From the IMG/VR virus record IMGVR_UViG_2526164646_000006: DNA of 23,456 bases. The stretch is one strand, 5' to 3'. The notes beneath the pieces were generated by a model. That model ran no database searches. It was given only the letters and a program-made list of their open reading frames with translations, and was not told the DNA's origin. Positions 10,783 to 13,913 of this stretch are shown here, one piece after another (the stretch's first letter is position 1; each line of letters begins with the position of its first letter). This DNA comes from a virus (taxonomy: Duplodnaviria; Heunggongvirae; Uroviricota; Caudoviricetes). A program made the position numbers and the translations under genes.

Positions 10783-12309
10783 ATGACGCCAAGTGAACTT
10801 AGCGACCTGCTTTGGGCGCAGGTTGACAGGGTGGCTCCGCACCTGTTGCCAAACGGCAAGAAAGAGGGGCATGAGTGGGTTGCCGGTAACGTCAATGGTG
10901 ACAAGGGAAACAGCCTTAAGGTCAACCTTAGCGGCAAGAAAAAATGGGCTGATTTCGCTGAGGGAGACGGCGGTGACATGCTTGATTTGTGGATGGCATG
11001 TCGTGGAATTAACCTGCATCAGGCTATGCAGGAAGCGAAAGCATTTCTCGGTATCAAGGATGACGATCACCATTTCGATGCCAAACGTGAGAAAAAATTC
11101 TCCAGACCTGATCGCAAGAAAATCGCCCGCTACGTTACCAGAACAGAATCCCATCTTGAGTACCTGCAATCGCGTGGCATATCGCCAGAAGTCGTAAAGC
11201 GCTACGAGGTTGTCAGCGGCAAGGTGTGGAATGGAGAACGAGAACTTGATGCACTGGTGCTTCCGTACAAACGCGATGGTGAGTTGTTGCAGGTCAAGCG
11301 AATCAGCACTGAGCGCCCGGACGGGAAGAAAGTCATTATGGCAGAAGGTGATTGCGAACCTTGTCTGTTCGGATGGCAGGCTCTGGACGCTGGCGTGAGG
11401 GCGGTTGTACTTTGCGAAGGCGAAATTGATTGTATGAGCTATGCGCAATACGGCATCTCGGCGTTATCCGTGCCGTTTGGTGGAGGGAAAGGCGCTAAGC
11501 AACAGTGGATTGAGTTTGAGTACCACAACCTCGACAGGTTTGAGGAAATATTCATCTCGATGGACGTTGATGATGTTGGTCGTGAAGCCGCAAGGGAAAT
11601 CGCAAGCCGACTCGGTGAACATCGTTGCCGTCTTGTTACTCTGCCGTACAAAGACATCAACGAATGCCTGATGAACGGTGTTACCGAGGATGAAATCTGG
11701 CAGTACATCGGCACGGCATCCTACTTTGATCCTGAAGAACTCTACAGCGCGCGAGAGTTTTACCAGGACACTATCAACGCTTTCTACGGCAAGCAGCAGT
11801 ATCTGTTTAATCCACCGTGGGAATCTCTGGCAGATAAATTCCAGTTTCGTGAGGCCGAGTTGACGCTGGTCAATGGTGTGAACGGTCACGGAAAAACGGA
11901 GGTTGTCGGGCATATGGCACTTGAGGCAATGCGTCAGGGTGTGAAGACGTGCATCGCGTCACTTGAGCTGAAGCCTGGTATTCTCCTTAAGCGCCTTACC
12001 CGTCAGGCGACGTGCTGCAAGATGCCGCCAGTGCTGGAAATTGACTCTGCATTTAAATTTTATGACGAAAGACTTTGGGTGTTTGGCCTGACTGGAACGG
12101 CGAAAGCCGACAGGCTGATCGAAATATTCGACTACGCTCGCCGCCGATACGGCATCCAGTTATTCATCATCGACAGCCTGATGAAATGCGGCATAGGTGA
12201 CGATGACTATAACGGGCAGAAAGCATTTGTTGACTCGATTTGTGACTTCAAAAACAAACAAACTCCCACGTCATTCTCGTTACTCACTCCAGAAAAGGAG
12301 ATAGCGAAG
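10783..12309 (+). pseudogene. bifunctional primase-helicase (Toprim + SF4 RecA-fold helicase, T7 gp4-like), 5' portion; frameshifted near 12262-12268 and cut by IS911
   Basis: Toprim motifs CEGEID...DVDD; Walker A GVNGHGKT; Walker B LFIIDSL; downstream motif [11 protein letters not shown] is only readable in the -1 frame. Confidence 0.85.
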
Positions 12310-12350
12310 TGAAGTGGCACACTGAATTTGGCCACCTGAACAGAGGTGAT

Positions 12351-12683
12351 ATGCTCACCTCAGAACAACACAGGTGCTCCAATGAAAAAAGAAATTTTAG
12401 CGCAGAGTTTAAACGCGAATCCGCTCAACTGGTTGTTGACCAGAAATACACGGTGGCAGATGCCGCCAAAGCTATGGATGTTGGCCTTTCCACAATGACA
12501 AGATGGGTCAAACAACTGCGTGATGAGCGTCAGGGCAAAACACCAAAAGCCTCCCCCATTACCCCGGAACAAATTGAAATCCGTGAGCTCAGGAAAAAGC
12601 TACAACGCATTGAAATGGAGAATGAAATATTAAAAAAGGCTACCGCGCTCTTGATGTCAGACTCCCTGAACAGTTCTCGATAA
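12351..12683 (+). CDS. IS911 orfA; the expected MKKRNF start at 12382 is out of frame in this copy
   Basis: Translation ...[21 protein letters not shown]...[14 protein letters not shown]; A AAA AAG slippery site at 12632-12638. Confidence 0.7.
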
Positions 12684-12709
12684 TCGGGAAACTCAGAGCG
12701 CATTATCCT

Positions 12710-13549
12710 GTGGTCACACTCTGCCATGTGTTCGGGGTTCATCGCAGCAGCTACAGATACTGGAAAAACCGTCCTGAAAAACCAGACGGCAGACGGGCTG
12801 TATTACGCAGTCAGGTACTTGAGCTACATGGCATCAGCCACGGTTCGGCCGGAGCAAGAAGCATCGCCACAATGGCAACCCGGAGAGGCTACCAGATGGG
12901 ACGCTGGCTTGCTGGCAGGCTCATGAAAGAGCTGGGGCTGGTCAGCTGTCAGCAGCCGACTCACCGGTATAAACGTGGTGGTCATGAACATGTTGCTATC
13001 CCTAACTACCTTGAAAGGCAGTTCGCCGTGACCGAGCCAAATCAGGTGTGGTGCGGTGATGTGACCTATATCTGGACGGGTAAGCGCTGGGCGTACCTCG
13101 CCGTTGTTCTCGACCTGTTCGCAAGAAAACCAGTGGGCTGGGCCATGTCGTTCTCGCCGGACAGCAGGCTCACCATGAAAGCGCTGGAAATGGCATGGGA
13201 AACCCGTTGTAAGCCCGGCGGGGTGATGTTCCACAGCGATCAGGGCAGTCATTATACGAGCAGGCAGTTCCGGCAGTTATTGTGGCGATACCAGATCAGA
13301 CAGAGTATGAGCCGGCGCGGAAACTGCTGGGATAACAGCCCAATGGAACGCTTCTTCAGGAGTCTGAAGAACGAATGGATGCCGGTGGTGGGTTACGTAA
13401 GCTTCAGCGAGGCAGCTCACGCCATAACGGACTATATCGTTGGATATTACAGTGCACTAAGACCGCACGAATATAACGGTGGGTTACCCCCAAACGAATC
13501 GGAAAATCGATACTGGAAAAACTCTAACTCGGTGGCCAGTTTTTGTTGA
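12710..13549 (+). CDS. IS911 orfB (DDE transposase, expressed as OrfAB by -1 frameshift)
   Basis: -1 frame relative to orfA; DDE-type catalytic region in translation. Confidence 0.85.
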
Positions 13550-13557
13550 CCACTTCA

Positions 13558-13913
13558 AAGAAAAACCAACCGGGAAAATGGACGTAAAAGGCTCTGGAGC
13601 GATAACAGACCTGACAGACAACCTTTTTATCATCTGGCGTAACAAGGCTCGCGAGAGAGCGTTACAGAGAGTTCAGAGTGGTGAAAAGATGTCAGAGAAG
13701 GACGAACAGCTACTGGCATCTCCGGCATCTGTTTTGATGCTTGAAAAACAACGTAACGGCGAAGGTTGGGAAGGTGGTGTCCCGTTGTTCCTTGACGAGC
13801 AATCGCACCAGTTCCTGCAACTTGAATCAGGATCGCCTTATAGCTACATCGCCAATATGCCGAAATCGGAATATGACGAGGCGTGGCGACAGGAAAACGT
13901 GACGGAGTATTAA
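13558..13913 (+). pseudogene. primase-helicase 3' portion (helicase C-terminal motifs) downstream of IS911
   Basis: EKPTGKMDVKGSGAITDLTDNLFIIWRNK...LEKQRNGE aligns with the gp4/DnaB helicase H3/H4 region and joins the pre-insertion frame across the duplication. Confidence 0.8.

Follow-up and report, generated by a model that had tools for sequence, protein, structure and literature searches.

An IS911 insertion interrupts the primase-helicase gene of a P22-like prophage segment in Shigella flexneri 6603-63

The insertion sequence (IS) IS911, a member of the IS3 family, was first described in Shigella dysenteriae. Here we report the analysis of a window of 23,456 bp, which corresponds to the entire contig AGRC01000012.1 (assembly GCA_000281795.1) of Shigella flexneri 6603-63, and in particular of a copy of IS911 that lies within a prophage gene coding for a primase-helicase similar to gp4 of phage T7. 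The published description of IS911 includes terminal repeats of 36 bp, an orfA/orfB organisation governed by a -1 frameshift mechanism, and a junction of 3-4 bp (PMC2909936). A precedent is known from the P22-like Shigella phage Sf6, whose early-right operon contains an annotated IS911 copy that interrupts ninG (NC_005344, 32876-34124). The Sf6 copy shares with the one found in the window the same termini, the A6G -1 frameshift site, the rve/DDE domain, a 3-bp target duplication and the location in an early-right operon, while the target gene is different, being ninG in Sf6 and the primase-helicase gene in the window.

With respect to the interrupted gene, whole counterparts are found in phages Sf101 (gp45) and mEp043 and in a prophage of Escherichia coli 7/2 (WP_001331794.1). 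The sequences flanking the IS are 99.9-100% identical to these three genes, which also share their neighbours with the window, namely an O-type initiator gene upstream and the nin region downstream. In its intact form the gene, annotated as 'toprim domain-containing protein' and coding for 626 amino acids (aa), is present in 296 of the 5426 complete E. coli genomes. The intact homologue matches the Pfam domains Toprim_2 (E = 3e-12, residues 209-296), AAA_25 and DnaB_C; in addition, it aligns over residues 192-539 with the structures of T7 gp4 (PDB 5ikn, 6n7i and 1q57, E of about 1e-23), and also with human Twinkle (E = 6e-14). The assignment of the gene as a primase-helicase, proposed in a first-pass annotation of this DNA, is therefore well founded on both the Pfam domains and the alignment to T7 gp4.

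Specifically, in T7 gp4 and human Twinkle (PDB 5ikn, 6n7i, 1q57 and 8e2l) the TOPRIM domain is followed by the helicase motifs H1, H2, H3 and H4, and the same order is observed in the intact homologue. The EGEID and DxD motifs of TOPRIM are kept in the gp4 alignment; Walker A (H1) corresponds to GVNGHGKT at residue 365 and Walker B (H2) to LFIIDSL at residue 460, and the HVILVTH stretch (residue 496) aligns with the gp4 segment containing the H3 histidine. Further downstream, the sequence KGSGAITDLTDN of the homologue aligns with RGSGALRQLSDT of gp4, defining motif H4, and IIWRN aligns with the gp4 residues ALERN, which we take to hold the arginine finger. T7 gp4 is nevertheless a distant relative: the alignments to it begin at residue 191, its first 190 residues could not be aligned with the Cys4 zinc-binding domain through which gp4 recognises primer sites, and no Pfam zinc-finger match was obtained. 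Moreover, the homologue pairs with a lambda O-type initiator and an iteron origin, whereas T7 gp4 pairs with the T7 origin system.

The IS element of the window is 1248 bp long and extends from position 12310 to position 13557 on the plus strand, co-oriented with the interrupted gene. Its first bases, at 12310, are TGAAGTGG... and its last bases, at 13557, are ...CCACTTCA. Over the whole element the identity to the annotated 'insertion sequence:IS911' of Sf6 is 99.84% (one mismatch and one gap), while E. coli copies whose RefSeq label is 'IS3-like element IS911 family transposase' (programmed frameshift) are 99.0% identical to it. The two ends are occupied by imperfect terminal inverted repeats of 36 bp, the left one (IRL, 12310-12345, plus strand) starting with TG and the right one (IRR, 13522-13557, minus strand) ending with CA; the repeats match at 24 of the 36 positions, and a repeat search reported a 27-nt inverted repeat at the termini.

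As far as the coding parts of the element are concerned, orfA maps to 12382-12683 (plus strand), with its ATG at 12382 and its body open in another frame than the ATG, and a Pfam HTH_Tnp_1 match is found in the orfA frame. The orfB gene, at 12638-13549 (plus strand), encodes the DDE/rve catalytic part of the OrfAB transposase (Pfam rve, 5.5e-31; rve_3, 2.6e-10), and its frame (frame 2) is -1 relative to that of the orfA body (frame 0). The sequence and the two frames locate the slippery heptamer A AAA AAG, for the programmed -1 frameshift from orfA to orfB, at 12632-12638 (plus strand). In comparison to the Sf6 copy, which is 1249 bp long, the window copy has one A less in the run at the start of orfA, and its reconstructed OrfAB differs by one residue, G277C. 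The features that mark an IS911/IS3 element, that is, TG...CA repeats of about 36 bp, the rve domain in OrfB, a short target duplication and near-identity to the reference IS911, are all present. The two-frame orfA/orfB layout is recognisable, with its AAAAAAG site, but the orfA ATG is out of frame as deposited, which may be a sequencing error, and OrfA and OrfAB are obtained only with one A restored. By every feature tested, the element at 12310-13557 is IS911. The first-pass annotation had proposed this identity together with imperfect repeats of about 36 bp, and the Sf6 identity and the exact ends bear it out. A hybrid outward promoter arising from a -35 sequence in IRR was also sought, and no promoter-like site was found on the plus strand; when the same strand of the IS was screened for intrinsic terminators, only one weak terminator-like match came up, at 13767, which lies downstream of the element.

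The left junction, between 12309 and 12310, reads ...GATAGCGAAG on the gene side and TGAAGTGGCACACTG... on the IS side, and the right junction, between 13557 and 13558, reads ...TTGACCACTTCA on the IS side and AAGAAAAACC... on the gene side. The element is thereby bordered by two copies of the triplet AAG, the left one at 12307-12309 and the right one at 13558-13560. The E. coli 7/2 homologue, which has no insertion, provides the empty site; aligned with both flanks, it reads ...GATAGCGAAGAAAAACC..., with one AAG only. This shows that the insertion is real, with exact boundaries and a 3-bp duplication not due to chance. Judged against this empty site, the AAG triplets bordering the element are a genuine 3-bp target-site duplication, as had been suggested from the window sequence itself. 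The gene-to-IS junction of 6603-63 (GGAGATAGCGAAG followed by TGAAGTGGCAC) is spanned by no E. coli complete genome and by no phage record; the exact 509-aa 5' product was found on this contig only, and a search with the frame-repaired junction peptide returned no protein spanning the junction. Within the scope of these searches, this particular junction is found only in S. flexneri 6603-63.

Alignment of the window with the intact homologues shows that the gene is divided by the IS into two parts. The 5' part (10783-12309, plus strand) comprises codons 1-509 plus 1 nt and differs from its whole counterpart in E. coli 7/2 (626 aa) by a single gap, with no substitutions. The 3' part (13561-13913, plus strand) comprises codons 510-626 and the TAA stop codon, includes H4 and the residues of the arginine-finger region, and is 100% identical to both Sf101 and E. 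coli 7/2. Upon deletion of positions 12310-13560 the rejoined gene measures 1883 nt and matches the 1884-nt intact E. coli genes at 99.9%, which is the comparison that the first-pass annotation had indicated as a check. Codons 509 and 510 flank the insertion point, which places it downstream of motif H3 and upstream of H4. Consequently, the IS splits the helicase motifs of the window copy, with H1, H2 and H3 lying upstream of 12309 and, downstream of 13561, H4 and the arginine-finger region, in keeping with the proposal that the C-terminal helicase motifs have been separated from Walker A/B. The SF4 motif set, which is complete in one polypeptide in the intact homologue, is not contained in any single polypeptide of the window copy. 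As read from its sequence, the window copy is a pseudogene of the T7 gp4-like primase-helicase family, whose members are frequent in lambdoid and P22-like phages.

In conclusion, it is highly probable that IS911 transposed into the prophage primase-helicase gene of 6603-63, duplicating the AAG triplet, and that helicase and replication functions were lost. The event is best explained as a genuine copy-out/paste-in transposition into a replicative gene, which codes for a bifunctional enzyme of the T7 gp4 type, with an N-terminal TOPRIM primase and a C-terminal SF4 hexameric helicase; the O-type initiator, the iteron origin and the primase-helicase together represent the replication module of the phage. 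The insertion leaves the primase domain and motifs H1, H1a, H2 and H3 upstream, cut off from H4, the DNA-binding loop, and from the arginine finger. SF4 helicases, as known for T7 gp4, require both H4 and the arginine finger for nucleoside triphosphate-driven translocation, and because of this the helicase function can safely be taken as lost. With no functional helicase made, an induced prophage would be expected to fail to replicate its own DNA, and we infer that autonomous replication of the prophage would be lost, unless a helper supplies the function. This accounts for the 6603-63 prophage being probably replication-defective and provides one more case of IS-driven prophage decay in Shigella. 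The element is a known one and the event is of an ordinary, already known kind, which opens no new biological question. For annotation, the practical consequence is that the pieces are best described as IS911 and a primase-helicase pseudogene disrupted by it.

In addition to IS911, the window gene as deposited carries a 1-bp deletion after codon 492, which is not found in the whole genes of Sf101, mEp043 and E. coli 7/2. This deletion maps 51 nt upstream of the IS, at 12256-12258 (plus strand), where an A3 run replaces the A4 run of the intact homologues (intact genes read TTCAAAAACAAAACAAACTCC, the window reads TTCAAAAACAAACAAACTCC), and the frame shifts after codon K492. As a result, the long 5' open reading frame (ORF) of 509 aa at 10783-12312 and the HVILVTH stretch lie in different frames, and the product of this ORF as deposited would consist of 492 native residues followed by 17 out-of-frame residues, with the TGA stop codon provided by the first bases of the IS. 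The rejoined sequence as deposited is therefore not one ORF, and excision of the IS alone would not restore the gene. The view that removal of the element and of one AAG rejoins the helicase motifs in one frame thus holds for the motif stretch and EKPTGKMDVKGSGAITDLTDN, which are contiguous and in frame, but not for the 5' ORF, which lies in another frame.

The presence of this deletion in the contig is compatible with the hypothesis that the gene was already dead when IS911 arrived, in which case the IS would have struck a pseudogene secondarily and neutrally rather than being the cause of inactivation. Other genomes, in which the same gene has been independently frameshifted or truncated and genuine frameshifts do occur, speak in the same direction. 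The order of the two events, however, is not readable from one sequence, the variant at 12256-12258 is absent from all 286 E. coli genomes carrying the gene, and the rest of the gene shows no substitutions with respect to the intact allele. Furthermore, the same motif is affected in a second copy of the gene in this genome, where the neighbouring A5 run has lost one base, and other, error-prone assemblies show assorted indels at the motif near 12256-12258, a picture that resembles homopolymer miscalling. All together, we consider it unlikely that the frameshift came first, and for the deletion at 12256-12258 itself an artefact of homopolymer sequencing has an even chance. A Logan contig of SRR060746 ends at 11928, before the A run, and so gives no reading of the deletion. 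A 517-aa cluster member was also considered as a carrier of the 12256-12258 allele and was rejected, as it has a different frameshift.

A second one-base deletion is observed within the IS, at the start of orfA, where the A run at 12385-12390 is A6 and not A7: the window reads ATGAAAAAAGA, compared to ATGAAAAAAAGA in Sf6, SfII, E. coli EC28 and three complete chromosomes. As deposited, the orfA ATG encodes only an out-of-frame peptide of 38 aa, while restoring one A gives a 100-aa OrfA and a 389-aa OrfAB. The term 'complete', which had been applied to this IS911 copy, is thus appropriate for the full element ends but not for the start of orfA, which is frameshifted as deposited. The A6 form of IS911 was found at no fewer than nine different loci (at least nine) in the S. 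flexneri drafts AFGY01, AFHD01, AKMV01, AFGV01, AFHC01 and AGRC01 (K-227, 4343-70, K-315 and others), whereas the A7 form is present in another IS911 copy of the same genome (AGRC01000020.1) and in every finished sequence examined. A systematic homopolymer undercall is the more likely explanation, because a copy lacking its transposase is not expected to spread to so many sites, and we regard the A6 run in orfA as probably a sequencing error. Such an undercall would generate spurious gene calls for a 124-aa 'transposase'.

A further run, located outside the gene and the IS, is T6 at 5706-5711 in the window, as in Sf101 and Sf6, and T5 in the Logan SRR060746 assembly; homopolymer lengths therefore differ between assemblies of apparently the same strain. 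The single-base indels in the A runs of this draft should not be taken at face value. If both deletions were real, the gene would be doubly dead and the IS copy could no longer make its own transposase. In either case, the single-base deletions do not affect the main conclusion on the IS.

Some points weigh against the transposition of IS911 into the primase-helicase gene as we propose it, or limit its consequences. Within the collections searched, the junction is seen in one assembly only, that of 6603-63, although assemblers do not invent target duplications. The sequence is a draft contig and, with the shortening from A7 to A6 recurring as described above within the project that produced it, its single-base details are unreliable. 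Lastly, another prophage could, in principle, supply replication in trans.

A misassembly, by which a collapsed multi-copy IS911 would have been threaded into the contig while the real gene is uninterrupted, might be suspected from the occurrence of IS911 at many loci of this and sister drafts, from the second, partial copy of the helicase gene in the same genome, and from the Logan SRR060746 assembly, which stops short of the junction. The break of the Logan contig, however, matches the start of homology with the second gene copy (gene nt 1111), which explains it. Both junctions are present at the same target position, with exact IS termini and a 3-bp direct duplication; on the basis of this exact duplication, which misassembly does not create, we rejected misassembly as the origin of the IS and consider it extremely improbable.

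A functional role of the disruption, either through a dominant-negative truncated subunit excluding related phages or as a switch reversible by precise excision, deserves very little credence, given that, although the truncated ORF retains the whole TOPRIM domain, Walker A and Walker B and the flanks are otherwise identical to intact alleles, the insertion is not conserved in any other genome found, excision would not restore the frame as deposited, and IS hits in prophage genes are commonplace in Shigella, as other loci show. It is just as improbable that the insertion was selected, locking the prophage in the chromosome and letting the 509-aa fragment (primase and Walker A/B) poison the hexameric helicase of incoming related phages; the one argument for such a superinfection exclusion is that the fragment is still an open frame.

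Beside the transposition event described above for 6603-63, the same gene is independently disrupted in other defective lambdoid prophages of E. coli and Shigella, at sites other than the 12309/12310 junction. In several Shigella chromosomes and drafts (loci L019, L021, L024, L025 and L026) IS911, in one orientation or the other, abuts nt 1687 of a homologous helicase gene; this point lies about 20 nt 5' of a 58-aa ORF, and unrelated integrase or terminase fragments are found on the other side. This is apparently a different and widespread event, consisting of an IS911-associated truncation or rearrangement of a sister prophage. A 497-aa truncated allele (P0086), which ends with ...NSHV, 12 codons upstream of the insertion site, was found on 32 E. 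coli contigs of up to 5.2 Mb, and suggests another recurrent disruption nearby in E. coli prophages.

The second gene copy of the 6603-63 genome lies on AGRC01000020.1 (1846-4180). It is truncated, covering gene nt 1111-1884 with 97.5% identity, and upstream of it lies the 3' end of an intein, which is cut by another IS911 copy; the 1-bp deletion of this gene copy falls in the neighbouring A5 run of the motif CAAAAACAAAACAAAC. An allele with an intein was also observed on the Logan contig SRR17893052_339 (2396-3419), in which about 341 residues, with a LAGLIDADG-type domain, are inserted in Walker A (GHGK/ACPLN...VATHN/TEVV); this allele has, in addition, a 13-bp deletion near H4.

Upstream of the interrupted gene, a lambda O-type initiator gene of 278 aa maps to 9839-10675 (plus strand; Pfam Phage_rep_O, E = 1e-37) and harbours the origin, which comprises, within 10193-10300, three TGTCAC iterons (starts at 10193, 10213 and 10237) and an A-rich tract. 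The locus thus shows the arrangement of a lambdoid replication module, in which a Phage_rep_O gene with internal iterons and an A/T-rich region stands directly upstream of a gene for the helicase function. The O proteins of Sf101 and E. coli 7/2 have 286 aa and their genes contain four iterons; compared to these, the window lacks one iteron of 23 bp (between 10236 and 10237), and at 10279-10283 it has A5 in place of A6. The 23-bp and 1-bp losses add up to 24 nt and together preserve the frame, removing 8 residues from O and shifting a patch of 10; outside the linker encoded by the origin the O gene is identical to those of Sf101 and E. coli 7/2. The same O allele is present in the Logan SRR060746 assembly, which matches the window over 7.1 kb except for the length of one T run. 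Because the two changes jointly keep the frame and two assemblies agree on them, the paired deletions in O and the origin are more likely to be genuine.

The window as a whole represents a P22-like lambdoid prophage segment, and the 6603-63 genome from which it derives carries a heavy load of IS elements. The segment is closest to the S. flexneri phage Sf101 (98% over 52% of the window), with Sf6 and mEp043 also among the nearest phages. The minus strand carries ead/Ea22, an exonuclease, SSB, a Rad52/Erf-like recombinase, kil, ral and N, and this block is followed by an S24-type cI repressor, cro and cII. On the 3' side of cII are found the O-type initiator, the interrupted primase-helicase gene, NinB, NinX, RusA, Q, a holin and the small and large terminase subunits. 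Searches of the window for tRNA genes and for Rfam features gave no match.

Directly 3' of the primase-helicase gene, a terminator-like hairpin followed by a T tract is located at 13943-13966 (plus strand), in the position of lambda tR2; a tR2 homologue is annotated at the equivalent place in Sf6. Further downstream, a 1-bp difference at 15980 shifts the position of the ninF stop codon, and a 130-aa ORF at 15977-16369, on the 3' side of ninF, starts where the homology to Sf101 and Sf6 stops and appears hydrophobic.

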